Shown here piece by piece: positions 2,192 through 48,321 of a stretch of DNA of 48,390 nt; the first letter of the stretch is position 1, and each line of letters opens with the position of its first letter. Origin of the DNA: Patescibacteria group bacterium. GTDB taxonomy: Bacteria; Patescibacteriota; Minisyncoccia; Minisyncoccales; RBG-13-42-11. A program made the position numbers and the translations under genes. The notes under the pieces were generated by a model. It did not search any database. It was not told where the DNA came from and worked only from the letters and a program-made list of their open reading frames with translations. The DNA is taken from assembly GCA_035529635.1 (NCBI GenBank), contig DATKWJ010000003.1, forward strand, positions 1-48,390, read 5' to 3'.

Positions 2192-3990
<1,799 letters not shown>

Positions 3991-34150: not shown

Positions 34151-34180
34151 GTTTTTATTTTGTTAGGTGAATAATCGAAT

Positions 34181-34275: not shown

Positions 34276-35799
34276 CTACTCATTATTTTTTTTCAATATT
34301 CTTACCGTTCCTTTATTCGCATCAACTTCTACTAAATCTCCATCTTTTAGCGCCTTTGTGGCTACCTTAGTGCCTACCACGCAAGGCTTGCCTAATTCCC
34401 TGCTTACTATCGAAGCGTGAGATAATAATCCTCCTTCATCAGTAATAATAGCTATAGCGTTTCTCATAGCCGGAACATATTCAGGACTAGTCATGGAACA
34501 AACAAGAACATCTCCAATTTTTACTTCCCTTAATTTATCAACCTTCATAATAATCTTTGCTTTACCTTTAACTATACCAGGGGAAACAGCTTGGCCTGTT
34601 ATTATATTCCCTCCTTTATTTAATGTCCCTATATTTTTATCAATAGTGTTAGATAAAGATCTGCCATTCCTCCCAAAAATTATAGATGGCTCTCTTTTTT
34701 CAATCAGAAAAACATATCCCTGGCTTCTTTTTTTAAACTCTTTTAACTCAATTTTTTTACCTGACTTTAAACTATCTAATATTTCCTGATAAGTTAATAA
34801 TATAAATTGATGATATTTCATGTCAAGCTCTTTCACAATTAAATCAAGAAATCCTCGCATTCCCCTAAATAAGAATAGAGCTTCTTCAACGCTCCAGCTT
34901 AAAAGCCAACCAAAATCTCTTGCCCGTTTAATCTGCTTTATTAAGCTTTTATCATTGGATAATAATTTCAATAATTTATCAGCTAGTTTTTTATTCCTAA
35001 GTTGTTGAATTTTCTGTAATTTATATTCTTTAATTCCGTCTTTTTTAATAAATTCTTCCAATCGTTTTGATAATTCTGGCAATGTTAATAGATTAATTGA
35101 TGAGAATAAAAAGGTTTTTGTCCAAGAATATTTCTTTAAATATTTAGCGCTTAGTATTAAAAATTTTCTATTCTTTCTAAAATCCTTTTTATTTTTAATA
35201 AAATCTGCTAATTTGTAAAAATTATCTTGTTCTTTTTGTATTAAAACCTTTCTAACCGGATAAGATAAAACCATTAGAGCGTTATTAATATCAGTGATTT
35301 CTTCAATTTCATCTCTGTGTTTTATTAGCCCGGATTTAATTCTGTCTGTTATTAAATTATATTCAATCACATACCAGGGAATAAAGAACCAAGGAATTAC
35401 TTTTAAAAAAACTTTATCAAATTCTTCCCATAAATTTGCTAATTCTTTATTATTTAATTTCTTTTTTGTTTTTATATTCTTTCCAATAATTTTTATTATT
35501 CTCTCCAAATCTTTTAATCTATTTTGAGTTGTAGAAAATACATAATTCAAATAACTTTCTTTCGGGATGTTCTCCCTTAACTCTTTTATAATCTTCTTCT
35601 TTTGTCTTTTTTTAATATATCCTCTTCCAAAAGAACCTGTAATCAGATAATCGATTCTAGGAATTGGTAATTTAAATTCGTCCTTAAATTTATTCGACAA
35701 AGAACGGCACCATTGATCTGCCATTAAGATCGGGTGATTATTCCTTTGTTGAAATTCAAATTCCCATTCTTTTAAATTTATGTCTGATTTCTTAAGCAT
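34276..35799 (-). CDS. Protein with C-terminal PEP-utilizing phosphohistidine (swivel) domain
   Basis: GDVLVCSMTSPEY..IITDEGGLLSHASIVSRELGKPCVVG; unrecognised helical N-terminus. Confidence 0.85.
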   Translation of the reverse strand: MLKKSDINLKEWEFEFQQRNNHPILMADQWCRSLSNKFKDEFKLPIPRIDYLITGSFGRGYIKKRQKKKIIKELRENIPKESYLNYVFSTTQNRLKDLERIIKIIGKNIKTKKKLNNKELANLWEEFDKVFLKVIPWFFIPWYVIEYNLITDRIKSGLIKHRDEIEEITDINNALMVLSYPVRKVLIQKEQDNFYKLADFIKNKKDFRKNRKFLILSAKYLKKYSWTKTFLFSSINLLTLPELSKRLEEFIKKDGIKEYKLQKIQQLRNKKLADKLLKLLSNDKSLIKQIKRARDFGWLLSWSVEEALFLFRGMRGFLDLIVKELDMKYHQFILLTYQEILDSLKSGKKIELKEFKKRSQGYVFLIEKREPSIIFGRNGRSLSNTIDKNIGTLNKGGNIITGQAVSPGIVKGKAKIIMKVDKLREVKIGDVLVCSMTSPEYVPAMRNAIAIITDEGGLLSHASIVSRELGKPCVVGTKVATKALKDGDLVEVDANKGTVRILKKNNE

Positions 35800-36829
35800 T
35801 TTTCTTTTTTATGATCTTAACGATTCCTTTATTAGCGTCCACCTCCACCAAATCCCCGTCTTTTAATACTTTTGTCGCTATTTTAGCGCCAATAATGCAT
35901 GGAATTTTTAACTCTCTTGCAACAATGGCTGCATGACAAGTGATACCGCCCTCATCTGTAATAATTCCTTTGATTTTTTCAAAAACAGAAGCATAATCTG
36001 GACTAGTCATTTCGGCAACTAAAATATCTCCTCTTTTAATTTTATTAAGCTCACGTTTATATTTTATAATTTTAACCAATCCGCGTATTTTACCTGACAT
36101 CGCAGAAATTCCTTTGAATTCATTTATTCTTTCTTCGATCTCATTGTCATCTAACTCGATTAAAAGATTATTCATCTTACTCTTAAAATCTGATAGTAAA
36201 TAAAATTTATTATTAAAAATACAATATCCCTCCTTTCTTTTTATAATATTTTTTACATTTTTCTCATCCATCTCTTTCTGATTAAAAACCTCTAATGGTT
36301 TAATTAAAAAAGTTAGATTATTAAGCTGAGGATATTTTTTTCTCCAAAAGTCTATAAAAATATTATCTTGCTGATCAGAATATTTTTCACTCAGTATGCG
36401 TAAATTAAGTGATTCTTGGCGAATATTTTCTGAAATACTTTTAAGATCTGGGATTTCAAATAAAATAACCATTGCAGACCACCATCTGGTAATATTTCTG
36501 TAATATTCTTTTAATTGATTAATGTTTTTTATTTTTATTTTTCCGCTTAGAAAAAGAGAAATAGATCTCTCTTCTTTTTGTAATTCTTTTGCTAATTTAT
36601 TTAAAAGGAGTTCCTGCTTAAATTTTCGCGCTATTTTATCTCGAATTTGATTAAATTCTTTATTTTGATACCAAACAGAAACTTTATTACTCCCTTTTTC
36701 TTTCAAAAATAAACTGTTTTTTAAATTATGATTAAGCCATTTTTTAAAACCCAAACGATCACTTCTATTCCACATATAAGCATAAAAAAGAGTATGCTCT
36801 CTATTGAATACTTTAGATAATTTAATCAT
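35792..36829 (-). CDS. Second protein with C-terminal phosphohistidine (swivel) domain
   Basis: GDILVAEMTSPDY..IITDEGGITCHAAIVARELKIPCIIG. Confidence 0.85.
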   Translation of the reverse strand: MIKLSKVFNREHTLFYAYMWNRSDRLGFKKWLNHNLKNSLFLKEKGSNKVSVWYQNKEFNQIRDKIARKFKQELLLNKLAKELQKEERSISLFLSGKIKIKNINQLKEYYRNITRWWSAMVILFEIPDLKSISENIRQESLNLRILSEKYSDQQDNIFIDFWRKKYPQLNNLTFLIKPLEVFNQKEMDEKNVKNIIKRKEGYCIFNNKFYLLSDFKSKMNNLLIELDDNEIEERINEFKGISAMSGKIRGLVKIIKYKRELNKIKRGDILVAEMTSPDYASVFEKIKGIITDEGGITCHAAIVARELKIPCIIGAKIATKVLKDGDLVEVDANKGIVKIIKKKNA

Positions 36830-36830
36830 A

Positions 36831-37820
36831 TTATAATGTAGTTATCGGCCTGCTTTGGGTTATATAAATCTTATTATTCTCTATTGCGAATTCTATATCT
36901 TGAGGATATTTATAATGATCTTCTATTTTTTGACAGAGTTTAGCCAATTGGATGATTTGCTTATTAGAGAGTTTTTGTTTTGATTGTTTAGATTTCGGAA
37001 CCCTGGTTTCTTTAATGCCATTACCTTGTCTGATAATCATCATTTCTTGAGAACTGATATTGCTATCTATAATCACCCAATCTCTTTTAGATATAACATA
37101 AGTGTCAGGAGTAATCTTCCCTCCGACAATAGCTTCTCCTAAACCCCAGCCAGCCTCAATAACCATCTGGTTTCTATCTTGAGTAACAGGATGAACAGTA
37201 AAGCAAATGCCAGACACATCTGATTGAATCATTTTTTGAATTACTACTGCTACTCCTACTGGATAGCAATAAGCTAATTTCTTACAGGTTTTAGCTCTAA
37301 TCTTTTTTTGTCCTGTTTGAGTAATTACCCCCTTTTCAAAAGCATAAAATAAAGCTCTGGGAGTAAATAAAGAAGACCAGCATTTCTTAATGTTTTCTGC
37401 TAAATTAGATTGAGAAGTATTTAAATATGTTTCTAATTCTCCTGCCCAGGAAGCTATTGAAGAATCTTCTGCTGTTGCTGAAGAACGAACTGCCACATAT
37501 TTATTATTTAGCTTCTTAAACTCTTTTAAAAACTCTTTTTCTAAATCTTTTGGAATCTGAGTGTCAGATATTAAATCTCTGATTATATTAGAAGCCTTAT
37601 CTACAGAATTGATATCTTTAAAATTAATAGCCTTTATCTGAGAAGCTATTTCTACTACTAAATCTGTTTCTTCTAAAAACTTATCAAAGGCCTCAACTAA
37701 AATAATAAAACCAGGAGGAACTGGAATTTTGGCTTTAGTCATCTCTCCAAGCGAAGCTCCCTTGCCGCCTGCCAAAAACACGTCTTTTTTAGATATATTT
37801 TTAAAAAGTTTAATAAACAT
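36831..37820 (-). CDS. Stand-alone PPDK/PPS N-terminal ATP-grasp domain protein
   Basis: GGKGASLGEM and VAVRSSATAED motifs; ends at QSRPITTL. Confidence 0.88.
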   Translation of the reverse strand: MFIKLFKNISKKDVFLAGGKGASLGEMTKAKIPVPPGFIILVEAFDKFLEETDLVVEIASQIKAINFKDINSVDKASNIIRDLISDTQIPKDLEKEFLKEFKKLNNKYVAVRSSATAEDSSIASWAGELETYLNTSQSNLAENIKKCWSSLFTPRALFYAFEKGVITQTGQKKIRAKTCKKLAYCYPVGVAVVIQKMIQSDVSGICFTVHPVTQDRNQMVIEAGWGLGEAIVGGKITPDTYVISKRDWVIIDSNISSQEMMIIRQGNGIKETRVPKSKQSKQKLSNKQIIQLAKLCQKIEDHYKYPQDIEFAIENNKIYITQSRPITTL

Positions 37821-37835
37821 ATTAGATTATCTTTA

Positions 37836-37868
37836 TTCTACCAAAAAACCGCCGTAGTGGCGATTTTT
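37836..37868. repeat. Promoter-plus-hairpin module, copy 1
   Basis: TTCTACCAAAAAACCGCC-gtagt-GGCGATTTTT; the minus strand reads TGGTAGAAT (extended -10). Confidence 0.6.
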
Positions 37869-38781: not shown

Positions 38782-38814
38782 TTCTACCAAAAAACCGCCT
38801 TCTCGGCGATTTTT
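38782..38814. repeat. Promoter-plus-hairpin module, copy 2
   Basis: TTCTACCAAAAAACCGCC-ttctc-GGCGATTTTT. Confidence 0.6.
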
Positions 38815-38849
38815 AATGCCACTCGGTCTCTCGATACTTTGAGCTGACT

Positions 38850-38998
38850 GCTGTATATCCCGGTCTTGAACCGAGATTTTAAGGGAAATTCCGGGGTGTT
38901 TCCGGGTGTCTCAGTGACCCGTCTCGGTCAGGGCATTTTGAAGCTAAAATGAGACAAATGAGACACTATTTAGGGGTGTTTCGCGATGTCTCATTTTT
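38850..38998. repeat. Family-2 repeat copy A (tRNA T-arm mimic plus GAGAC boxes)
   Basis: 99/118 identical (hand count, ungapped) to 39750-39867; contains an AAAATGAGACA/TGTCTCATTTT inverted pair. Confidence 0.85.
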
Positions 38999-39313
38999 TA
39001 TCTTTTTCCAACTCCTCGCTCCGAAGAATCCGAAAAGACCAAAGAGACCGTAAAACCCGGGGCTGGCAATCAACCCGATTAGTCCGAATAATCCCAAAAA
39101 GCCGATTTTCCACAAATCTCTTGGTCCGCCCTTCCTAAAATAAGAGATGATATTTTAAATGACGGAAATGACAAAAGAAAGAAGGAAAGCAAAAGTTAGA
39201 ATAAAAAATACCGGCTCTTCAATTTTGAAATAAGCGGAAATGGCATTGTGTAAAACAACAGAAATTACACTTAAGCCAAATAGAATATAAGTTATTTTAG
39301 TTTGTTTTTCCAT
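38966..39313 (-). pseudogene. Small membrane-protein gene with an in-frame TAA at codon 53
   Basis: MEKQTKITYILFGLSVISVVLHNAI...VISVI*NIISYFRKGGPRDLWKIGFLGLFGLIGL...; the hydrophobic frame continues past the stop at 39155-39157. Confidence 0.7.
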
Positions 39314-39319
39314 ATTATT

Positions 39320-39703
39320 TTATTCCGTTCCCATCAAAATCTTCCCGCATTTTGGCTCGGCGGCTATTGCCAAATCAATTATGTCATTAAGTTCCGGTTC
39401 AACGGCAGTCAATTCTTCTCCGTTTTTCAGTTTCGCCCATACCGTTCTAGCGTGTGTCTGCCAAACGCTTTCAACCTCGCAATTGGCAATCGCTTGTTTA
39501 ATGGCCGGCCATTGCGGAGCATCTGGACAAAGCGCAAATTCACAGTTGGGACCTACGCGGCCGACATAGGAGCCGTCCGGACAAAGCTTGACGTCCTGGG
39601 TGCAGGCAACTGGCTCTTCGCCGCCAATTAAAAACCTCAAGCCAAACCAAATCCCAGTCAAAACAACCAATAAAACAATTAAAATAATAAATGTCTTCTT
39701 CAT
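39320..39703 (-). CDS. Small membrane-anchored Cys-motif protein
   Basis: N-terminal TM helix, then ACTQDVKLCPDGSYVGRVGPNCEFALCP, a motif I recall as common in CPR surface proteins. Confidence 0.8.
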   Translation of the reverse strand: MKKTFIILIVLLVVLTGIWFGLRFLIGGEEPVACTQDVKLCPDGSYVGRVGPNCEFALCPDAPQWPAIKQAIANCEVESVWQTHARTVWAKLKNGEELTAVEPELNDIIDLAIAAEPKCGKILMGTE

Positions 39704-39749
39704 ATTTTTATTCTACCAAAAAATCGGCCAAAAGAATAGGCGGCAATTA

Positions 39750-39899
39750 GCTGTGTCCCTCGGTCTAGAACCGAGGTTTTAAGGGAAAAATTGGGGCTTT
39801 TCGGGGTGTCTCATTGACGCGTCTCGGTCAGGGCGTTTTTAAGCTAAAATGGGACAAACGAGACACTGGTTGAGAGTATTTTTTTTGTGTCTCATTTTT
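39750..39899. repeat. Family-2 repeat copy B
   Basis: The minus strand ends CTCGG-TTCTAGA-CCGAG-GGACACA-G-CTA, the same geometry as the tRNA-Gln 3' half. Confidence 0.85.
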
Positions 39900-41222
39900 G
39901 GCTGAATTTTTATTTTCCCTTGCAGAAACAATAATCCTGGAAACAGATATTAAGTTGGAAATTAAGGCAATTAATATTAATACAAAAAATATTAAGCCTG
40001 TTATCCCTGCGAACATAATAAGAAGAAGTCTTCCTGGTCTTTTAAACTTAGGACCGTACCATACAAGTTTACGATCTGTTATGTCGCGATACTTAGTAGG
40101 TAAATAGTTAAGAAGTGCAAGTCCCATGACCGCAAATGCTGCAATGGGCCAAACTAATGAATTTTGACTAATTGCCCAATAGCCGTAAGCCATGCCAATT
40201 ATAATTAACATATCTATATAACGATCAAATGCGTCATCGAGCCAAGCACCAAATTTACTTGATAAAAACTTGAGTCTTGCAATTTCTCCGTCACAACCGT
40301 CGGTAATCGAAGTCAGCTGGGCCAATATTCCTCCTATAAAAATCCAGGGGAAACTTCCTTTTGCAAAAAGAAAGGCGGATGAAATCCCAATCATTAAATT
40401 GAGTATAGAAATTTTATTAGGAGTAAGCCCGGTTTTTACTAAGTATTTTGAAATAAATATAGAAATTTTTCGATTAATTATTTTTGATACAATTCCATCC
40501 TCGGATTTATTAAGATTCTTAAGAAGTTTTTTTTCTGCAAATTTGATATCTGCATAAGTATCGCAGTCTGACCAAAATCTTCCTTTAATGTTAAATGCCC
40601 TCAGTTTTCCTTCTTTTACAATGACTCTCATCCCATTAGTCAATGAATTTTTATGCTCTGAAATAGTTTTTTTTAGAACTTTAAAAATATAGGGGGAACA
40701 CAAAAACATTCCAGTATCGTAGGCATTATAGACATCGAGATTCTTGCTTATTGAATCAATTTTGTTATTTTTAACTAAAACTTTTGTGGTATCGCCTATA
40801 TCTAAAACGGAATCCATATTTTTATCTATAGCAAGAGCACACTCGTCCTTTTTTAATTTTATTCTCTTAAGCCTAAGGAGTGTTCTCCAGTCAAAGACAT
40901 GGTCAGACATTAGAAGAATAAAATTTTCCTTAAAATAATCTTTCGCTTTAAGGACAGAAATTCCATTTGCCTTCTCCCATTCATCATTCTGAATACAAGC
41001 GATTGAAACACCAAAACGACTACCGTCGCCGATAGTTTCCTTAAGTTCTTTTCCTTTATAGCCGGTAATAATTACAAACTCAAAAATACCTGCCTCTTTT
41101 GCTCCAAGAATAACTCTCTCAATGATCTTTAAGCCCAATAAGCTCATAAGCGATTTATGTCGCCCACGAGTTACCGACTGCATTCTTGTGCCATTACCGG
41201 CTGCAATAATTAATGCTTTCAT
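39828..41222 (-). CDS. Bifunctional NTP-transferase / CDP-alcohol phosphatidyltransferase (IPCT/DIPPS-like)
   Basis: MKALIIAAGNGTRM and LMSDH in the N-half; DGCDGEIAR...GAWLDDAFDR in the C-half; start reassigned to ATG at 41222; the C-terminus reads into repeat B. Confidence 0.85.
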   Translation of the reverse strand: MKALIIAAGNGTRMQSVTRGRHKSLMSLLGLKIIERVILGAKEAGIFEFVIITGYKGKELKETIGDGSRFGVSIACIQNDEWEKANGISVLKAKDYFKENFILLMSDHVFDWRTLLRLKRIKLKKDECALAIDKNMDSVLDIGDTTKVLVKNNKIDSISKNLDVYNAYDTGMFLCSPYIFKVLKKTISEHKNSLTNGMRVIVKEGKLRAFNIKGRFWSDCDTYADIKFAEKKLLKNLNKSEDGIVSKIINRKISIFISKYLVKTGLTPNKISILNLMIGISSAFLFAKGSFPWIFIGGILAQLTSITDGCDGEIARLKFLSSKFGAWLDDAFDRYIDMLIIIGMAYGYWAISQNSLVWPIAAFAVMGLALLNYLPTKYRDITDRKLVWYGPKFKRPGRLLLIMFAGITGLIFFVLILIALISNLISVSRIIVSARENKNSAKNETQKKYSQPVSRLSHFSLKTP

Positions 41223-41248
41223 GGTTGTTCCCAAATTAAAAATAAAAA

Positions 41249-41363
41249 GGCTGAGAACACGCATTCAACTGGCTTAAACCGCTTTGTATATTGCCTCCAA
41301 AAAGACAAAATTGACTGGTCAATAAACAGTTTATGTCGCCCACTTGTTTGCTCGGTTCCAACC
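41249..41363 (-). ncRNA. Candidate structured RNA / 5' leader (long imperfect hairpin followed by a U-tract)
   Basis: Lies downstream of TTGACA-17-TATTCT (41374-41402); nested complementary segments; followed by TTTTTATTTTT. Confidence 0.35.
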
Positions 41364-41438
41364 CATCCATCGTAGAATAGCTTAAATTTGGACTTGTGTC
41401 AATATAAAAACCCACTGATAAGTGAGTGAAGTAAGATT

Positions 41439-41546
41439 ACTGCGTACCTCAGTGCCTCAGTTTTGGACTCCAGTTTTAAGGGAAAAATTGGGGGCTTTTC
41501 AAGGTCTCTCACCGACGCGTCTCGATAGGGACTATTTAAGATAAAA
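41439..41546. repeat. Family-2 repeat copy C (degenerate)
   Basis: GTTTTAAGGGAAAAATTGGGGGCTTTTC..TCTCA..GACGCGTCTCG..AGGG..TTTAAGATAAAA aligns to copies A and B; internal CCTCAGT duplication. Confidence 0.75.
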
Positions 41547-41569
41547 CCTGTCCCATAGCAATCCTTGCT

Positions 41570-43384
41570 TTACTTCTGGGATGAGAACTCAGACTTTTCC
41601 TGCCTTTTAACACGGACACGATCAATTTCTGTAAGAAATTGCTTTCTTAAACGAATGCTTCCGGGAGTTATTTCAAGATATTCGTCGTCATTCATTATTT
41701 CTAACCCTCTCTCAAGAGTAAGTTCTGTCGGAGGAGTTAATGTTATCGCCTCGTCAGATCCTTTCGCCCGCATATTGGTAAGTTCTTTTCCTTTTGTCGG
41801 ATTTACCGCCATATCTTTCCCCTTTGAAGTGTTGCCGATGACCATACCCTCGTATACTTCTGTTCCCGGACCTATGTAGAGTATACCGCGCTTTTGAAGA
41901 CCCCACAAAGAAAACCCGAGAGATTTACCCGCCGCCATAGAAATCATTGAACCGACCCTCCGCCTGCGGATTTCTCCCACGTACGGCTTAAATCCCAGAA
42001 AGCGCGAAGAGAGGATGCCGTCACCTTTCGTATTCATTACAAATTGATTTCTGTATCCGAGAAGCCCCCGCGTGGGACCCTCTAATGTAAGCCTTACCGT
42101 ATCGCCTTTCCTGATAATATTTTTGAGGATGCAAGCTCGCGTACCGAGACTCTCAATGATCGTGCCTTGATATTCCCGGGGAGTATCGATAACGACTTCC
42201 TCAAACGGTTCTGTCTTGATTCCGTTTTCTTCGCGGATAATCACCCGCGGCTGGGAAACTTGCAATTCGTACCCCTCTCGCCTCATATTTTCAAGAAGTA
42301 TAACTATATGCAGTTCGCCTCTGCCATACACCTGAAATACATCCTTTGAGGTAAAATCAACCCGCAAACCGACATTTACTTCCAATTCTCTTTTTAAATA
42401 CTCGTGCAATTCGCGGGACGTTACGTGTTTTCCTTCCCGCCCCGCAAAATTTGAGCTGTTCACTAAAAAGTTAAGGGTAATAGCTGGTTCATCAATCGCG
42501 ATAACTGGAAGCGGTTCAGCTTTTTCATCAGTTGTCACCGTTTCTCCAATGTCTATGTCGGGGAGCCCTGAGATGAGTGCAATATCACCGGCACTTGTTT
42601 TTTCCGAATCTATTCTTTCCAATCCGTTGAAAGTAAAAACTTTGGTAATTTTTCCTGAGCGGGTTTCTCCGTTCGGTTTCTTAACGAATACGTCAGCTCC
42701 CGACTGAAGGACGCCTTCATACACTCTCCCTACCGCCATACGTCCCATAAAATTGTCGTAGGCAAGATTAAAAGGCTGGAATCGCAATGGTTTTTGTTCC
42801 AACGCCTCTGATGAAGCACAGGGAACATGAGAAAGAATGGTAGATAGGAGCGGCGTGAGATCTTTTGATTCATCGGCAAGTTTAAGTTTCGCGATTCCCT
42901 CGCGACCGATGGCATAGACGACCGGAAAACTTGATTGTTCATCGTTCGCGCCAAGCTCCAGGAAAAGTTCAAGCACTTGCTCTTCGGTACGCTTCAAGTC
43001 CGCAGCCGGTTTGTCTATTTTATTTATTACCACAATAGGTTTTAACCCCAATTCCAGAGATTTTTTTAAAACGAATCGGGTCTGCGGCATTGGCCCTTCC
43101 TGAGCATCCACGACAAGAAGTACGGAATCAATCGAACGCAGAACGCGCTCCACCTCTGATCCGAAATCGACATGGCCGGGAGTATCAACAATATTTATCT
43201 TGGTGCCTCGATAGGTAATCGCTGCATTTTTCGAGTATATCGTAATACCGCGCTCTAATTCCAGTGCGTTTGAATCCATTGATACCCCTTCTTTACAAGC
43301 CCCCGTTTGACGCATCAAGGCATCCGTTAAGGTTGTTTTGCCGTGATCAACGTGGGCAATAATAGCAATATTTCTTATTTCCAT
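41570..43384 (-). CDS. typA: Translational GTPase TypA/BipA
   Basis: IRNIAIIAHVDHGKTT, DTPGH, GRGELH and LEITPGSIRLRK motifs. Confidence 0.97.
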   Translation of the reverse strand: MEIRNIAIIAHVDHGKTTLTDALMRQTGACKEGVSMDSNALELERGITIYSKNAAITYRGTKINIVDTPGHVDFGSEVERVLRSIDSVLLVVDAQEGPMPQTRFVLKKSLELGLKPIVVINKIDKPAADLKRTEEQVLELFLELGANDEQSSFPVVYAIGREGIAKLKLADESKDLTPLLSTILSHVPCASSEALEQKPLRFQPFNLAYDNFMGRMAVGRVYEGVLQSGADVFVKKPNGETRSGKITKVFTFNGLERIDSEKTSAGDIALISGLPDIDIGETVTTDEKAEPLPVIAIDEPAITLNFLVNSSNFAGREGKHVTSRELHEYLKRELEVNVGLRVDFTSKDVFQVYGRGELHIVILLENMRREGYELQVSQPRVIIREENGIKTEPFEEVVIDTPREYQGTIIESLGTRACILKNIIRKGDTVRLTLEGPTRGLLGYRNQFVMNTKGDGILSSRFLGFKPYVGEIRRRRVGSMISMAAGKSLGFSLWGLQKRGILYIGPGTEVYEGMVIGNTSKGKDMAVNPTKGKELTNMRAKGSDEAITLTPPTELTLERGLEIMNDDEYLEITPGSIRLRKQFLTEIDRVRVKRQEKSEFSSQK

Positions 43385-43489
43385 AAAAAATAGGCCCTTC
43401 CCAGGCCGAGAATCCTAGATTGAATATAAACTAAAAAAATTCTTTTGTCAATAAAACAGAAGTCCGCTAGCCGCCCAATCGGGGTTATC

Positions 43490-44065
43490 CTACACAAAAC
43501 TCGCAATCTTTCGGGTTAATTCTTCTTTTCCTTCGTTTGTTTTGGCAGAATACTCCAAGACCGGTATATCTCGCACTTCTTCTCGGATCAAGGAAAGCTG
43601 TTTTCCTGCATCACTCTTAGTTAATTTGTCAATTTTGTTTGCAATGATGATAATTTGATGTTTATTTACCTTGAGAATTTTTATCATATCCCTATCTAAG
43701 GCAGTCAAGCCGACATTAGCGTCAATAATTAAGAAAACCGCTTTGGGCCTCGCACTGGAAAACTCCACATACCAAAAAATCCTTTTGATCATTTTGTTGC
43801 GCTCCAATATCGAACGCTTCGCATATCCATATCCGGGAAAATCCACAAAATAGAAAGAATTATTAATGCGGAAAAAATTCGCTTCACGTGTTTTCCCCGG
43901 AATTTTGCTTGTTTTTACAAGATCTTTTTTACCGACTAAAGAGTTTATCACGCTTGATTTTCCCGCATTGGAACGGCCAAAAAAAGCGATGTGCGGAAAA
44001 TTATCTTCCAGACCATAATCGTCTCCGATAACACCTTTAGCAAATTCTGCTTTTGATATTTTCAT
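43490..44065 (-). CDS. engB: Ribosome biogenesis GTPase YihA/YsxC/EngB
   Basis: GRSNAGKSS, PGKT, VDFPGYGYAK and NKIDK motifs. Confidence 0.95.
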   Translation of the reverse strand: MKISKAEFAKGVIGDDYGLEDNFPHIAFFGRSNAGKSSVINSLVGKKDLVKTSKIPGKTREANFFRINNSFYFVDFPGYGYAKRSILERNKMIKRIFWYVEFSSARPKAVFLIIDANVGLTALDRDMIKILKVNKHQIIIIANKIDKLTKSDAGKQLSLIREEVRDIPVLEYSAKTNEGKEELTRKIASFV

Positions 44066-45045
44066 AATTCTTTCTTTCCTTCTGTTTTTCCCAAAATTAA
44101 ACCATTGAGTATTTTCTTGACGAGTTCAATACTGTCCCGGCTAAATATGGAAATTGGCGTTGCGTTCTTATTTAACTCTTTGAGTTTCTCTGCTGCCCTG
44201 GCAACAATATCGGAAGAAACTGCGTCCTTTTTGCTTATAAAAAGATATTCCGGCTTTTCCAGAAGCAGTTTATTGTGTGTTTCTAATTCGCTGCGTACCG
44301 TTTTATAATCTAGGACCGGATCGACGGAATCTGCGGCGACAAAATGAAATATAATCTTTGTGCGTTCTATATGCCGTAAAAATTTAATTCCGAGACCCTT
44401 GCCCTTAGACGCGCCTTCAATAATCCCAGGAATATCAGCAAGTATCAAATCATAATACGCGCCTAAATTCGGCTCCAAGGTCGTGAACGGATAATTTGCC
44501 ACTTTGCTTTTGGCGTTGGTCAGTTCATTAAGCAAACTTGATTTCCCGACATTAGGCAGCCCCACAAATCCCACGTCAGCAATCATTTTTAACTCAAAGC
44601 GAACCTCAAGTGATTCTCCCGGCTCTCCGTATCCAAATTCTTTAGGTGTCGTATTGGTTGATGACCGAAAATTAAAATTGCCCTTTCCTCCACGTCCGCC
44701 TAGGGCAATCTGTACCCGCTGGCCGATTTTAGTGATTTCAACATGTTGGCCTATTGCCAAATTGCGAGCAACGGTTCCGACGGGAACCGTTAAGATCAGG
44801 TCCTTTCCGTCTCTGCCGCTGCGAAGTTGCGAGCGGCCGTCCTGTCCGTTTTCAGCCCTGACTTCTTTTTTGAAACGGAATTTCTTCAATGCAGTCAAAT
44901 CAGAAACACCTTCAATATAAATACTCCCTCCTTTGCCACCGTTGCCGCCGACAGGACCTAAAGACATTTTTGTTTTATTAAACGCCACTATTCCCTTTCC
45001 TCCATCTCCCGCCATTGCTCTTATTGTTACATCATCAACAATCAT
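44062..45045 (-). CDS. obgE: GTPase ObgE/CgtA (no C-terminal extension)
   Basis: Gly-rich Obg fold, GLPNVGKSS, ANYPFTTLEPNLG and DIPGIIEGAS motifs. Confidence 0.95.
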   Translation of the reverse strand: MIVDDVTIRAMAGDGGKGIVAFNKTKMSLGPVGGNGGKGGSIYIEGVSDLTALKKFRFKKEVRAENGQDGRSQLRSGRDGKDLILTVPVGTVARNLAIGQHVEITKIGQRVQIALGGRGGKGNFNFRSSTNTTPKEFGYGEPGESLEVRFELKMIADVGFVGLPNVGKSSLLNELTNAKSKVANYPFTTLEPNLGAYYDLILADIPGIIEGASKGKGLGIKFLRHIERTKIIFHFVAADSVDPVLDYKTVRSELETHNKLLLEKPEYLFISKKDAVSSDIVARAAEKLKELNKNATPISIFSRDSIELVKKILNGLILGKTEGKKEL

Positions 45046-45211
45046 ATCATCAGTATAAGCTATTTTAATTCATATTAAAAATTAAATATCATGCTTATAA
45101 ACAAAAAAACCGCCCCTTCCTGAAAAGTAAACTAATCCTGAAAGATAAAAAAATCCTGCTTCAGTAAAAAAAATTCCCTTTCAGGCAGTTTTTGAAGCTA
45201 AATACCTCAGC

Positions 45212-45265
45212 CACCTGACTTAGCATATGACTGCTGGCGCTATGGGACGATGTTAGAACCTGTTT
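45212..45265. repeat. Family-1 repeat with an extended left arm shared with the tRNA junction
   Basis: CACCTGACTTAGCATATGACT-GCTGGCGCTATGGGACGATGTTAGAACCTGTTT. Confidence 0.9.
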
Positions 45266-45278
45266 ATTATTTTCTAAA

Positions 45279-45731
45279 TTAAGAATGTTTACTTAAAATA
45301 AAATTTTTAAGCCAATCGCTATCTTTAACAAAAAGATCTAAACTACCATCTGGCTTGTGGGTAGTCGATCCTTTATGGGCAGTTATTTGCTCAGGAGAAG
45401 ATGTCCAAATGTTTACCTTAGAAAGGCCAAATACTCGGTGCAGTATCCCTTGAACATTATCTACATTTTGAATAATTGTGAAGGGAATAGACTTAGATTT
45501 CTTAATAATAATTCCTGAGTTTATTGTAATTTTATTATCTTCAACTATAAAACTAAAAGCATTATAAAAGAGGAAAAGATATAAGGTAAAGGGTAAACCT
45601 ATAAAAATAATTAGAATCCAAAATAACGAATGCCAAAATAAAGATGCTAATAATATTAATCCAAAAATTTTAGTTAACCAATACCATTTAAATTGTTTTG
45701 GTAATTTATTTGGAGTGTTGAGGTTTATCAT
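45279..45731 (-). CDS. Bacterial PH-domain (bPH_2/YdbS-like) membrane protein
   Basis: Two TM helices, then ITINSGII...IPFTIIQNVDNVQGILHRVFGLSKVNIWTS. Confidence 0.8.
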   Translation of the reverse strand: MINLNTPNKLPKQFKWYWLTKIFGLILLASLFWHSLFWILIIFIGLPFTLYLFLFYNAFSFIVEDNKITINSGIIIKKSKSIPFTIIQNVDNVQGILHRVFGLSKVNIWTSSPEQITAHKGSTTHKPDGSLDLFVKDSDWLKNFILSKHS

Positions 45732-45793
45732 ATTGAATTAAAATTATTTATAATTAATTTTCAACTTGGTTTGATGAATAGTACTAGATGATA

Positions 45794-45826
45794 GCTGGGG
45801 CTATGGGACGATGTTAGAACCTATTT
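45794..45826. repeat. Family-1 repeat
   Basis: GCTGGGGCTATGGGACGATGTTAGAACCTATTT, preceded by ATGATA as at the tRNA junction. Confidence 0.9.
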
Positions 45827-45852
45827 AACCCTATGCCCTAGTACAATTTTTT

Positions 45853-46461
45853 TTACTTAAGACAAAAATCTAGAAATCGTTTTCCAAATTCACTCAAGCT
45901 TATACTCTCATGGATTCCACCGTCTGATCCGCCAAGCGCTATGGAACCCAATGTAGCTGTAATTATTCCCCATGATTTTAATTTATAAATAGACCCCTGT
46001 ATTATTGATTTTTCTATGCCAGGTTTATTAATTGATAATGAATCAACTACGCCGGTCTGTTCGTTTAAAAATTTTATTACTTCTGCTTCTAGTAATGAGA
46101 TGTCAGTTAAGATATCTAAAAATTTCTTACGTTCATCGTAATTTCTATTAACGGGTTGAATTAAAGTGTTCTTAAAATAATTTTTGAAAAATTCTCTCTT
46201 TTCAATTAATGGTTCTTTTTCAATTTTTTCATGCAGTTGCTCTATAATCGCCGCTAGTTCATCAGAATTATGTTCTCCAATATCTTTAATTTTATTCTTA
46301 ATTAAAGCAACCTCTTCTTTAATCTCCTTGTAAAAAGTTTCGATTCTATGAAATTGTCTTTTTTGTTTACTACCAAAATACAGAGTGGCAAGCGAACCTC
46401 CAATATACGGTACAGCTTCTACTAATGCTTGGATTGTTAATTCTTTATCGACTTTAGACAT
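45853..46461 (-). CDS. Hypothetical protein (possibly DUF4393/Abi-alpha-like, with a C-terminal winged helix)
   Basis: VPYIGGSL N-terminus and LSEFGKRFLDFC C-terminus; family resemblance only. Confidence 0.7.
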   Translation of the reverse strand: MSKVDKELTIQALVEAVPYIGGSLATLYFGSKQKRQFHRIETFYKEIKEEVALIKNKIKDIGEHNSDELAAIIEQLHEKIEKEPLIEKREFFKNYFKNTLIQPVNRNYDERKKFLDILTDISLLEAEVIKFLNEQTGVVDSLSINKPGIEKSIIQGSIYKLKSWGIITATLGSIALGGSDGGIHESISLSEFGKRFLDFCLK

Positions 46462-46484
46462 ATAAAATTTATGAAGTCTTATTA

Positions 46485-46517
46485 GTTGCGGGGCCTGGAC
46501 GATGTTAGAACCTGTTT
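46485..46517. repeat. Family-1 repeat, tRNA-hybrid copy
   Basis: GTTGCGGGGCCTGGACGATGTTAGAACCTGTTT; the left half matches the tRNA-Gln 3' end. Confidence 0.9.
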
Positions 46518-46851
46518 AATAGAGTTTTCCGCCAATTTCAGCGATATCCTTGTCGGGAACGATTAAAACACAATTCCCCTCTTTATCAGGAACGCCCAGA
46601 GTTAGTACCTCTGATAGAAATGGACCAATTTTTCTTGGCGGAAAATTCACTACACCTAAAACTAATTTATCTTTTAACCCTTCTTTCGTGTATAAAGCAA
46701 CCAGTTGGGCGGATGAGCTTTTGATGCCGATTTCCGAACCGAAATCAATCTTAAGTTTGTAAGACGGTTTTTTCGCTTCGGGAAAATCTTCAATTTCAAT
46801 TATTTTCCCGACCCTGATATCTAACTTTTCAAAATCTTCCATCGTTGCCAT
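46516..46851 (-). CDS. csaA: tRNA-binding / secretion chaperone CsaA (Trbp111 family)
   Basis: FEKLDIRVGKI, KPSYKLKIDFG, SSAQL and VVNFPPRKIGPFLSEVLTLG motifs. Confidence 0.92.
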   Translation of the reverse strand: MATMEDFEKLDIRVGKIIEIEDFPEAKKPSYKLKIDFGSEIGIKSSSAQLVALYTKEGLKDKLVLGVVNFPPRKIGPFLSEVLTLGVPDKEGNCVLIVPDKDIAEIGGKLY

Positions 46852-46863
46852 ATTTTTTATTTA

Positions 46864-46896
46864 GCTGGGGCTATGGGACGATGTTAGAACCTGTTT
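46864..46896. repeat. Family-1 repeat
   Basis: GCTGGGGCTATGGGACGATGTTAGAACCTGTTT. Confidence 0.9.
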
Positions 46897-46921
46897 TAAC
46901 GAATGTCTAATATAATTTCTA

Positions 46922-48174: not shown

Positions 48175-48250
48175 GTTTTATAAAATTTTCTTAATTTTTT
48201 CTTTCATAGATTTCTGATGCGTTTCGGTCACCTGGCTTAGCATATGATAG

Positions 48251-48321
48251 CTGCGGGGCTTGGATTCGAACCAAGATACACGCCTCCAGAGGGCGCGGTC
48301 CTACCGTTAGACGACCCCGCA
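48251..48321 (-). tRNA. tRNA-Gln(CUG), CCA not encoded
   Basis: TGCGGGG...CCCCGCA-G acceptor; GCGCC-ct CTG ga-GGCGT anticodon arm; CTTGG-TTCGAAT-CCAAG T-arm. Confidence 0.95.

Follow-up and report, generated by a model that had tools for sequence, protein, structure and literature searches.

Organization of the gene array behind tRNA-Gln

The window analyzed here is a whole 48,390-nt stretch of a Patescibacteria group bacterium (GenBank assembly GCA_035529635.1; contig DATKWJ010000003.1, positions 1 to 48,390), and it holds an array of cargo genes, repeats of two families (hereafter family 1 and family 2), and right-end arms, with a tRNA-Gln gene as its anchor (Table 1). No large serine recombinase gene was found within the window. 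As a previous sequence-only reading of this DNA had noted, cargo genes end within the repeats, i.e., the 464-aa gene stops at 39828 in copy B and the membrane-protein gene stops in copy A. The latter contains an internal TAA (39155-39157) in GCA_035529635.1 and is open in locus L132 and in sequencing runs X1 and X2. The 127-aa gene matched no Pfam or NCBIfam family, and its homologues elsewhere adjoin family-1 or family-2 sites. The 464-aa fusion is IPCT/DIPPS-like (under the NCBIfam cut-off), and in L094 and L027 it likewise lies after a family-2 site. The typA, engB, and obg genes, with the typA stop 10 bp past copy C, are putatively a cargo unit as well; family-1 or family-2 sites flank engB and obg in other genomes, and identical cargo is found beside differing site types across genomes.

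Table 1 Features of the array in the window
Feature	Position	Strand	Basis or detail
Terminator-like inverted repeat, right end of the unit upstream of A	38789..38815		Motif family D13
Right-end arm (CTCGGTC, 4 nt, GATAC), unit left of A	38822..38847	+	Motif comparison
Family-2 copy A	38848..38998	+	BLAST, motif scan
Copy A, head	38848..38875		Core GCT 38850-38852, GGTCT-GAACC block; then TTTTAAG-GGAA spacer
Copy A, second CTCGGTC motif	38916..38929
Copy A, direct box pair	38950..38965
Copy A, inverted box	38987..38993
Small membrane-protein cargo gene	38966..39313	-	Stop inside A
127-aa cargo gene, N-terminal hydrophobic segment	39320..39703	-	ORF
Family-2 copy B	39748..39899	+	Head 39748-39775, motif 39816-39829, boxes 39850-39865, inverted box 39888-39894
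Nucleotidyltransferase and CDP-alcohol phosphotransferase fusion (464 aa)	39828..41222	-	Stop inside B
Family-2 copy C	41445..41559	+	Head degenerate, box pair gone, 3' inverted box variant 41549-41555
typA, engB, obg GTPase genes, between copy C and right-end arm	41570..45045	-	Annotation
Degenerate right-end arm, directly ahead of family-1 site 45231	45205..45230	+	Motif comparison
Four family-1 sites (45231, 45792, 46483, 46862)	45231..46900	+	Motif comparison
Right-end arm touching tRNA-Gln 3' end	48216..48247	+	Motif comparison
tRNA-Gln(CTG), array anchor	48250..48321	-	ARAGORN, Rfam

Besides the four family-1 sites in the table, a fifth, degenerate one lies at 34179; family 1 differs from tRNA and family 2 in that its GAACC is set 5 nt farther away from the core. 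A conserved right-end arm (CGGTC, 4 nt, GA-), which the sequence-only reading had missed, occurs before copy A, at 45205-45230, and beside tRNA-Gln. The arm at 38822..38847 appears from its sequence to be an attP-spaced half-site, and its motif also flanks the tRNA 3' ends of islands that encode a short recombinase (see below). The arm touching tRNA-Gln is nearly identical to the arm between the short recombinase and tRNA-Gln in L241 and L139.

Family-2 repeat copies

The starts of copies A and B are separated by exactly 900 bp, and the two are identical at 99 of 118 ungapped positions, which agrees with the earlier count, and BLAST extended the repeat beyond its previous limits to 150 bp (38850-38998 vs. 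39750-39899, 79% identity, E 3e-31). Copy C was rightly described as degenerate, with 75 bp at 84% identity to B (BLAST, E 2e-15) and its hairpin lost. Five box-like 7-mers were found in A (38907, 38920, 38950, 38959, and 38987) and five in B (39807, 39820, 39850, 39859, and 39888), again as proposed, and the heads of both copies have the tRNA-3'-like spacing that had been given (5-bp stem, 7-nt loop), with one wobble pair in the stem of A. A fourth, partial copy, previously missed, is located on contig C18 of the same genome. The 10-nt match to the family-1 core reported next to copy C (41550-41559) does exist, but part of it falls in TGTCCCA (41549), a variant of the box in inverted orientation, and it thus need not be a family-1 core. 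Readings of the 10-mer as a palindromic att arm or as a family-1 core in inverted orientation were dropped, given this overlap and because a longer pattern around it occurs only once more among the loci, on C18.

Across relatives, family-2 copies were detected in 17 of 60 genomes as co-oriented single-gene arrays behind tRNA-Gln, interspersed with family-1 sites. This search, which the sequence-only reading had suggested, located copies beside recombinase genes and tRNA 3' ends. The profile search gave 169 matches, of which 117 extend to the arm start and 113 yielded a head; a terminator-like inverted repeat precedes 24 of these 113 heads. A genome scan gave 42 matches, of which at least four (L054, L070, L083, and L088) lie in non-Patescibacteria records, lack the remainder of the repeat, and appear to be chance matches. 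In viral contigs, the box pair was present in three stretches of two contigs and the head pattern had no matches, so no free-phage form was found among them. Between 38000 and 48390, Rfam (E up to 5) and ARAGORN gave tRNA-Gln as the sole match above the gathering score or threshold; the repeat was rejected as a tRNA gene or fragment or Rfam RNA because it has no tRNA fold or Rfam match and its head loop violates the purine-57 and pyrimidine-60 rules of tRNA. Coding constraint on the head (GGT-CTN-GAA-CC, i.e., Gly-Leu-Glu-Pro), a candidate prompted by variable position 20, was likewise set aside, as we saw no conserved open frame and the pattern is explained equally well by a base left untouched within a protein-binding motif.

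Family-2 ends cap islands with a short large serine recombinase

In complete islands, the order is family-2 end, cargo, short recombinase, right-end arm, and tRNA. The genome studied here carries one such island on C18, with a family-2 copy (about 2930-3101), an HTH-like gene, type I restriction-modification genes, a ParB-methylase gene, TerS, TerL, and a 451-aa recombinase, followed by tRNA-Asn. The same layout was found in L139 and L241 (both at tRNA-Gln) and in G023, L288, L306, L114, L301, and L310; on contig C1 of G023, for example, the family-2 end, recombinase, and tRNA-Gln lie at 489.7, 507.9, and 510.0 kb, respectively. The suggestion of a second recombinase is thus borne out: the repeats end tRNA-targeted mobile units and are paired with a clade of short large serine recombinases distinct from the long enzymes.

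These short enzymes (about 420-450 aa) contain PF00239, PF07508, and PF13408, in the order Resolvase, Recombinase, and zinc ribbon. They do not have the full zinc-ribbon coiled coil, as about 45 aa of its tip are absent: of 70 sequences, 42 have a tail of 95-112 aa past the zinc-ribbon cysteines and the others one of 157-262 aa, and the distance from the last cysteine to an EKRELL motif is about 45 aa less than in long relatives. In a predicted structure, short helices occupy the coiled-coil position, and the best PDB matches of the fold are serine integrase-att complexes (E 5e-20). Most short sequences were retrieved by similarity to the C18 enzyme, and with this sampling they form one clade with support of 0.976 (0.733 when L045 is included). 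Pfam recombinase matches in the order are mostly in frames longer than 500 aa. The best NCBIfam match is CcrB, at 98-139 bits vs. a cut-off of 900. Gene ends also differ, since 26 of 26 short genes stop before the tRNA while 18 of 19 long ones read into it, in a scan where a few tRNAs were mis-anchored (e.g., L139, L312, L326, L362, and L363).

The box pair was detected in 47 of 301 genomes of the phylum (reversed control, 0 among the rows listed). We took 40 loci on the box pair alone; the first recombinase downstream was short in 13 (all co-oriented), long in one, partial in two, and absent in 24. An antisense tRNA followed in 24 of the 40. When the search started instead from recombinases, 7 of 33 short genes and none of 16 long genes had the box pair upstream (p 0.08), and a head with attB-type spacing was found in 6 of 19. 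The right-end arm closes 15 of 44 units that start with family 2 vs. 14 of 97 that start with family 1 (p 0.012), and the unit adjoining tRNA-Gln in the window is one of the latter 14. The two site types are not cleanly separated. No short recombinase was matched in four of five family-2-rich genomes searched. A search for an accessory protein found an HTH-like gene after the boxes in a minority only, and a 60-aa protein family showed no steady association with short recombinases; the HTH-like and 60-aa proteins are leads only for a recombination directionality factor (RDF), the protein that reverses the otherwise unidirectional reaction of phage serine integrases.

Possible variation of the A-B unit within the population

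In runs X1 and X2, contigs across the A-B unit had depths of 7.5 and 6.9, compared with 27-34 on the flanks, which suggests that the unit varies within the population, although contig depth gives no share of cells. The 900-bp A/B circle or empty site that the sequence-only reading had looked to was not seen, i.e., no excision circle, clean A/B empty-site joint, or 900-bp skip joint was listed in the contigs searched from X1 and X2, from which rare forms drop out. An 890-bp skip (38814 to 39705) was unusable because of unknown letters between its sides and a side of only 22 nt. No RNA run was among the listed sequencing runs that contain the region.

Alternative explanations for the head and the boxes

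It had been proposed that the head is recognized by tRNA shape rather than exact sequence. In the form considered here, a folded T-arm (a single-stranded DNA hairpin or RNA) would be read regardless of sequence, much as integron integrases read attC, and the heads make this very unlikely. Copies A and B each fold into the 5-bp stem and 7-nt loop, the outermost head pair is formed more often than in shuffled heads (0.65 vs. 0.54), and the stem covariation score exceeds shuffles (0.180 vs. 0.132; 0 of 500), a weak signal that persists. However, all five pairs are present in only 41 of 113 heads but in 96 of 98 T-stems of real tRNAs, the middle pair forms at chance level (0.52 vs. 0.52 shuffled), position 26 is random opposite a partner that is C in 100 of 113, a slid control already scores 0.153, relatedness inflates the covariation score, and the linked enzyme is a serine recombinase, a class that acts on duplex DNA. 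What is constant are two sequence blocks at set head positions. Moreover, head positions 4-6 equal those of the tRNA that follows in 9 of the 15 loci scored (mean of 1.4 in shuffles, none of 10,000 of which reached 9), a test that began with 24 loci, lost three without an anchor, left out 6 of 21 below the head score, and includes a few mis-anchored tRNAs; positions 7-14 have 26% identity to the next tRNA. Island ends and the target tRNA share head positions 3-6, with about 6 bp of tRNA identity. This tracking of the neighbouring tRNA, together with co-oriented copies clustered behind tRNA 3' ends and no terminal inverted repeats, leaves next to no probability for a dispersed MITE/REP-like repeat unrelated to tRNAs, for which the multi-copy, non-coding character would speak; dispersal with no link to tRNAs or recombinases, named earlier as counter-evidence, was not what we observed, as both links were found. 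The comparison of the boxes with arm-type sites of a tyrosine integrase beside an att core was also misplaced, because the enzyme associated with the repeats is a serine recombinase. Boxes in direct and inverted orientation, about 100 bp away from a tRNA-like core, do recall such sites, and a Xer-like gene occurs in three family-2 loci (L031, L119, and L130), but the only PF00589 match of the genome is Xer-like and lies on C10, where no family-2 copy exists, a single protein query gave no Xer-like match in the 40 box-selected loci, and tRNA identity is only about 6 bp; we consider a tyrosine integrase slightly less probable still than the folded T-arm.

Two other explanations accept a recombination site at the head. 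The boxes might be unrelated to recombination and serve as an operator, a pac site, or a replication/partition site of a phage-satellite-like element, i.e., as a passenger or packaging signal in the cassettes, which we regard as rather unlikely yet the most serious of these alternatives. Of the short recombinases, 8 of 33 have TerL within 3 kb upstream, compared with none of 16 long ones, and TerL recurs in many box-selected loci; the box pair is 53-63 nt ahead of an HTH-like gene in seven of the matches listed and immediately 5' of the recombinase gene in L114, L123, and L144, and some ends (L288, L289, and L303) carry three or four box modules, iteron-like. On the other hand, 25 of 33 short-recombinase islands have no TerL nearby and most also no HTH gene, and the boxes stay close to the head (27-117 nt among 15 well-scored heads) and are kept in recombinase-less cassettes with opposite-facing cargo. 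It is less probable, and indeed improbable, that long and short recombinases draw on one promiscuous pool of family-1, family-2, and tRNA half-sites, with family 2 not private to either. All three site types share the GCT and T-GAA blocks, mixed units are common, and in L167 a long recombinase runs directly into a family-2 head, with a second non-short recombinase next and no junction found. Yet box-selected loci yielded 13 short vs. 1 long recombinases in spite of the mostly >500-aa matches in the order, and in L125 an arm and a P-spaced junction stand between the family-2 unit and the long enzyme. Our best guess is that the boxes are putative accessory sites.

Proposed mechanism

Copies A, B, and C correspond in sequence to left ends of islands that adjoin a tRNA and encode a short-tailed large serine recombinase, and we consider it likely that they are attachment arms of recombinase-less cassettes stacked behind tRNA-Gln by such an enzyme, probably acting in trans. 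Because they match island ends that travel with the short recombinase, the repeats probably serve as docking sites for a second gene-cassette system, one in which two short sequence blocks are read. Crossover would take place within the GCT core at the last bases of the tRNA, and the enzyme may read about six target-specific bases at the core in addition to the near-universal T-arm block via its zinc ribbon. The family-2 head, with the T-arm block at the distance seen in tRNA, is likely an attB-spaced half-site, and family 1, 5 bp farther, would have attP-type spacing. Instead of two attP-spaced half-sites per element, the family-2 head thus has tRNA spacing if its presumed centre is right, so the circle formed on excision of a family-2 unit would have a hybrid P-left/B-right site in place of a true attP. 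The arm offset is 5 in Gln-type arms with a CT centre and 7 in Ser-type arms unless a GC centre is taken; both the point of crossover and the P-type spacing assigned to the right arm were fitted post hoc. Most speculatively, since the site-discriminating coiled coil is cut short, the CTCGGTC motifs and TGAGACA boxes may be candidate sites of an accessory protein that aids synapsis or direction. As the sole short recombinase of the genome sits in the C18 tRNA-Asn island, the builder of the tRNA-Gln units was probably a Gln-specific relative that is now absent or unassembled.

Comparison with known systems

SCC/SCCmec elements are serine-recombinase (CcrA, CcrB, and CcrC) islands in tandem arrays at one site, rlmH. 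The islands here are similarly tandem and their top NCBIfam match is CcrB, but they fall far under the Ccr cut-off, target tRNA, and have one recombinase gene. Integron arrays consist of co-oriented units of one or two genes between repeats, with the newest presumably by the anchor and polymorphism in populations, and their integrases read attC as a folded site. Units of this kind parted by repeats are also seen here, whereas no IntI is present, the pairing of the site is unconserved, and the linked enzyme is a serine recombinase.

Phage serine integrases (LI/A118, SPbeta, Bxb1, and phiC31) share the domain order and fold, and in the available text on them the zinc-ribbon motif is shifted by 5 bp between attP and attB and coiled-coil loss leads to lost site selectivity (PMC3783163, PMC5499577). 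The 5-bp offset between family 1 and tRNA fits this shift; in contrast, the short enzymes lack the coiled-coil tip, the element end is attB-spaced, the circle junction would be hybrid, and 150 bp are conserved vs. a 40-50 bp att site. The ssrA islands of Dehalococcoides, in the available text of McMurdie et al. (2011, PMC3146451), are tandem behind a tRNA-like gene and carry a recombinase module with ParB-domain and methylase genes; many are without this module and keep their att ends, with a conserved motif beside the repeat. Their enzyme DsiB (540 aa) overlaps its att site and targets tmRNA, with a 20-bp direct repeat and T-loop crossover (PMC3146451). The tandem islands, the serine recombinase with ParB/methylase genes, and the module-less members with att ends are all alike, and the att overlap resembles the long family-1-linked enzymes; our islands differ in their many tRNA targets, about 6 bp of 3'-end identity, a 150-bp boxed arm, and a short enzyme (420-450 aa) that stops ahead of its site (26 of 26). 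Tycheposons of Prochlorococcus are also tRNA-targeted cargo and satellite-like elements; they carry terminase and excisionase genes, build hypervariable islands, have tyrosine recombinases in 910 of 937 cases, and leave partial tRNAs of about 40 nt, and the available part of that preprint describes neither a boxed arm nor a short serine clade (bioRxiv 10.1101/2020.12.28.424599).

Implications for Patescibacteria

We found no paper on the box-bearing end or the short clade in the mainly open-access literature searched, and no cassette system in tiny Patescibacteria genomes is known in the literature searched. The main text of Durrant et al. (bioRxiv 10.1101/2021.11.05.467528), as available, does not mention tRNA, and its supplementary lists could hold such short enzymes. 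In the available text on large serine integrases, the coiled coil is the accepted source of selectivity and direction, and its deletion in the laboratory gives a promiscuous enzyme with poor intermolecular integration (PMC3783163, PMC5499577). With a widespread, naturally truncated clade and a long boxed arm, how efficiency and direction are regained becomes testable. We tentatively raise a wider interpretation, which is possible and on the whole doubtful: a phylum-wide clade of Patescibacteria enzymes with naturally truncated coiled coils may have abandoned the attP x attB rule and recombine hybrid sites, like with like, at the final bases of many different tRNAs, retargeted by a core of 3-6 bases and using a boxed arm and an accessory protein for synapsis and direction, resolvase-style, as a second cassette system interleaved with family 1 that takes even typA, engB, and obg as cargo. 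Because only about 6 bp are common to the tRNA, methods based on tRNA duplication likely miss these ends, and the head plus box pair provides a sequence marker for calling them. Overall, such a system offers a mechanism for the turnover of accessory genes in Patescibacteria.

Organization of the repeat copies

The window corresponds to contig C3 in a genome of 546 kb, and its array is a minus-strand row of genes ending at tRNA-Gln and punctuated by three sites of family 2 (a 150-bp boxed repeat) and five of family 1 (the other repeat type). The 900-bp spacing of family-2 copies A and B and their 99/118 identity, both reported in the sequence-only reading, were reproduced, with an alignment that spans 150 bp at 79%; copy C matches over 75 bp, and contig C18 of the same genome holds a fourth, partial copy. 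In a full copy, a head with the spacing of a reverse-complemented tRNA 3′ end is followed by the spacer TTTTAAG-GGAA, a second copy of the CTCGGTC motif, two TGAGACA-type boxes in direct orientation, and one box in inverted orientation. The right-end arm, a CGGTC-type motif, is found at three places in the window.

Coordinates of features in the window (unprefixed) and in other contigs, loci (L) and genomes (G; G000 is the genome studied); X1 and X2 are sequencing runs
Feature	Coordinates	Remarks
GC-rich repeats	1090-1730	near contig start; 9-bp period; Gly/Pro/Ala-rich coding-like; no long ORF listed
Array	34179 to tRNA-Gln (48250)	
Split PEP-synthase-like set	34276-37820	low-GC block inside the array; one PPDK_N gene, two PEP-utilising mobile-domain genes
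Terminator-like hairpin	37836-37868, 38782-38814, 39705-39745	recurs at cassette starts, adjoining a minus-strand TAGAAT -10 box
Family-2 copy A	38848-38998	
Membrane-protein gene	38966-39313	internal stop in window assembly; open in L132, X1 and X2
Family-2 copy B	39748-39899	
IPCT/DIPPS-like fusion cassette	39828-41222	inositol-phosphate compatible-solute or lipid pathway; 92-94% identity in L094 and L027
Family-2 copy C	41445-41559	degenerate
typA, engB, obg	41570-45045	normally core GTPase genes; here within the array, between copy C and right-end arm
Right-end arm	45205	others beside tRNA-Gln and before copy A
Second tRNA-Gln(CTG)	G000:C6:2249-2320	identical, at C6 end; probably assembly overlap with window contig end
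Hairpin ATGGGA-TTTAGAACCTG-TCCCAT	C18:18480-18575 (L319)	within right end of tRNA-Asn island
Heads with atypical core	L031:2330-2400, L119:6390-6430, L130:10090-10130	common context (CCTAGCGCCATCCCC)
tRNA-Gln 3′ fragment joined to family-2 head	L031:9990-10030	sense strand; relative orientation opposite to usual
Cassette block (~5 kb)	L022:14800-19700, L023:1270-5900	present twice within one array of G008
Inverted spare P-spaced junction	L125: 1576-1899, 3134-3527	upstream of the gene in a long-recombinase element, copying its own junction

Sequence blocks rather than tRNA shape

The proposal that the family-2 enzyme recognizes tRNA shape rather than exact sequence was not borne out. Across 113 heads, gathered by means of a profile that covers the downstream arm and was seeded from a head pattern, two elements were fixed: G-C-T (positions 3-5) and the block CGGTCT-GAACC. 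All five stem pairs were kept in 41 of the 113 heads (all Watson-Crick in 14), compared with 96/98 real tRNA T-stems in the same data; the middle pair of the heads was at chance level, and the head loop violates the purine-57/pyrimidine-60 rule of tRNA. At head positions 4-6, 9 of the 15 scored loci carried the same bases as the next tRNA (1.4 on average after shuffling), and positions 7-14 were 26% identical. The only point in favor of the shape reading is a residual covariation score of 0.180 (0.132 when shuffled; up to 0.153 in a slid control). Given the loss of stem pairs, the fixed blocks, and the tracking of the tRNA by positions 4-6, the mimicry therefore consists of two sequence blocks placed at tRNA spacing.

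A short serine recombinase accompanies the repeat

Two PF07508 recombinases and a single Xer-like tyrosine recombinase are encoded in the genome. On C18, the family-2 copy opens an island of 15.6 kb that continues with an HTH-like gene, restriction-modification genes, a ParB-methylase, TerS, TerL, a 451-aa recombinase, and tRNA-Asn. The same order of family-2 end, short recombinase (a large serine recombinase of ~420-450 aa), and tRNA recurs in L139, L241, and G023 (tRNA-Gln) and, at other tRNAs, in L288, L306, L114, L301, and L310. Of 70 recombinases placed in a tree, the 42 short sequences, most of them retrieved by similarity, formed a single clade, with tails of 95-112 aa beyond the zinc-ribbon cysteines versus 157-262 aa in the rest. 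Short enzymes lack ~45 aa of the coiled-coil tip, where a predicted structure places two short helices (mean pLDDT 82, pTM 0.42); structural matches of this model were serine integrases. Each of the 26 short enzymes that have a tRNA downstream stops before it, leaving a non-coding right-end arm, and 18 of 19 long enzymes (relatives with the longer tail) run into the tRNA.

The association of family 2 with a second recombinase, also proposed from sequence, was supported by 40 loci chosen by the box pair alone. Counting related and thus non-independent loci, the first recombinase encountered downstream was a co-oriented short one in 13, a long one in 1, and a partial one in 2; 24 loci had none, and an antisense tRNA lay downstream in 24 of the 40. 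The reverse test, which likewise includes kin, was weaker, as the box pair lay upstream of 7/33 short versus 0/16 long enzymes (p 0.08). In a count that again includes kin, the nearest half-site was B-spaced for 6/19 short versus 0/11 long enzymes. Right arms close 15 of 44 family-2-started units, yet also 14 of 97 family-1-started units, among them the unit nearest tRNA-Gln in the window, and in L167 the reading frame of a long enzyme enters a family-2 head; both observations count against a tidy split of sites between enzymes. A short-enzyme match was absent from four of five family-2-rich genomes.

Two further features were seen around these islands. A family-2 copy in L033 is preceded by a stretch related to the C18 hairpin, and a family of ~60-aa proteins, akin to the N-terminal part of the HTH-like protein on C18 and a candidate directionality factor, recurs inside islands (L025, L031, L049, L068, L106, L107, L127, L128, L130, L133, and L140).

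Distribution and activity

In related genomes, the repeat was present in 17/60 relatives, with at most 11 matches per genome. Family-2 arrays are co-oriented and interspersed with family-1 sites, and lie behind tRNA-Gln in seven loci (L022, L026, L034, L035, L039, L008, and L017). Most of the named records that carry the repeat belong to Patescibacteria, Nealsonbacteria and Minisyncoccales among them; full copies in L060 and L079, labelled outside this phylum, may reflect misbinning or transfer. The box pair alone occurred in 47 of 301 genomes sampled across the phylum (none for a reversed-pattern control among the matches listed), and at least 121 stretches of metagenome sequence contained it as well. 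The three loci with atypical-core heads also contain an Xer-like gene, and these heads may have a target other than a tRNA 3′ end.

In runs X1 and X2, which may include the source sample, a contig over 38859-39790 had depths of 7.5 and 6.9 versus 27-34 on either flank, although contig depth is not cell fraction. In X1 and a third run, X3, the left contig stops at 38849, at the core, and further contigs with other left sequence join ahead of B; family-1 cassettes were likewise reduced (14-23). No excision circle or clean empty site was found among the joints listed. These data fit the A-B unit being a variable slot.

Possible mechanism and relation to known systems

In attP, the zinc-ribbon motif of LI integrase covers positions 16-24 of the half-site, and in attB positions 11-19 (PMC3783163). 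With the crossover putatively set at the CT of the core, the T-GAA motif falls at 11-19 in tRNA-Gln and family 2, and at 16-24 in family 1. Family 1 thus reads as the ordinary attP half of long enzymes, for which a half-site scan gave weak direct support (3/11; control matches 2); family 2 reads as a half with attB spacing that is borne by the element. The right arm's inverted motif would sit further out, so that the site on a family-2 circle would be a hybrid. An integrase without its coiled coil recombines every site pair and integrates poorly, according to PMC3783163 and PMC5499577; we therefore propose that the additional motifs and the boxes, as putative accessory sites, would aid synapsis or direction. 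That the boxes are instead an operator or packaging site is a live alternative to this accessory role.

Family-2 units work like Dehalococcoides ssrA islands (PMC3146451) and have an outcome similar to that of integrons, yet membership tests placed them outside both; the short-recombinase system likewise fell outside SCC and the canonical coiled-coil serine integrases. We found no prior description of the boxed end or the short clade in the literature searched.

Cargo

The window's cargo reappears in other orders and next to other site types. Its nucleotidyltransferase fusion follows family 2 in L094 and L027, engB is flanked by family-1 sites in L025 and preceded by family 2 in L084, and the DUF5671 gene lies between family-2 sites in L073. 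A block similar to the PEP-synthase-like set is located ahead of a short recombinase in L123, and in G023 (L024/L025) family-1 sites separate obg from engB. The units in the window contain no recombinase gene and would be mobilised in trans, and typA, engB, and obg may move as cassettes.
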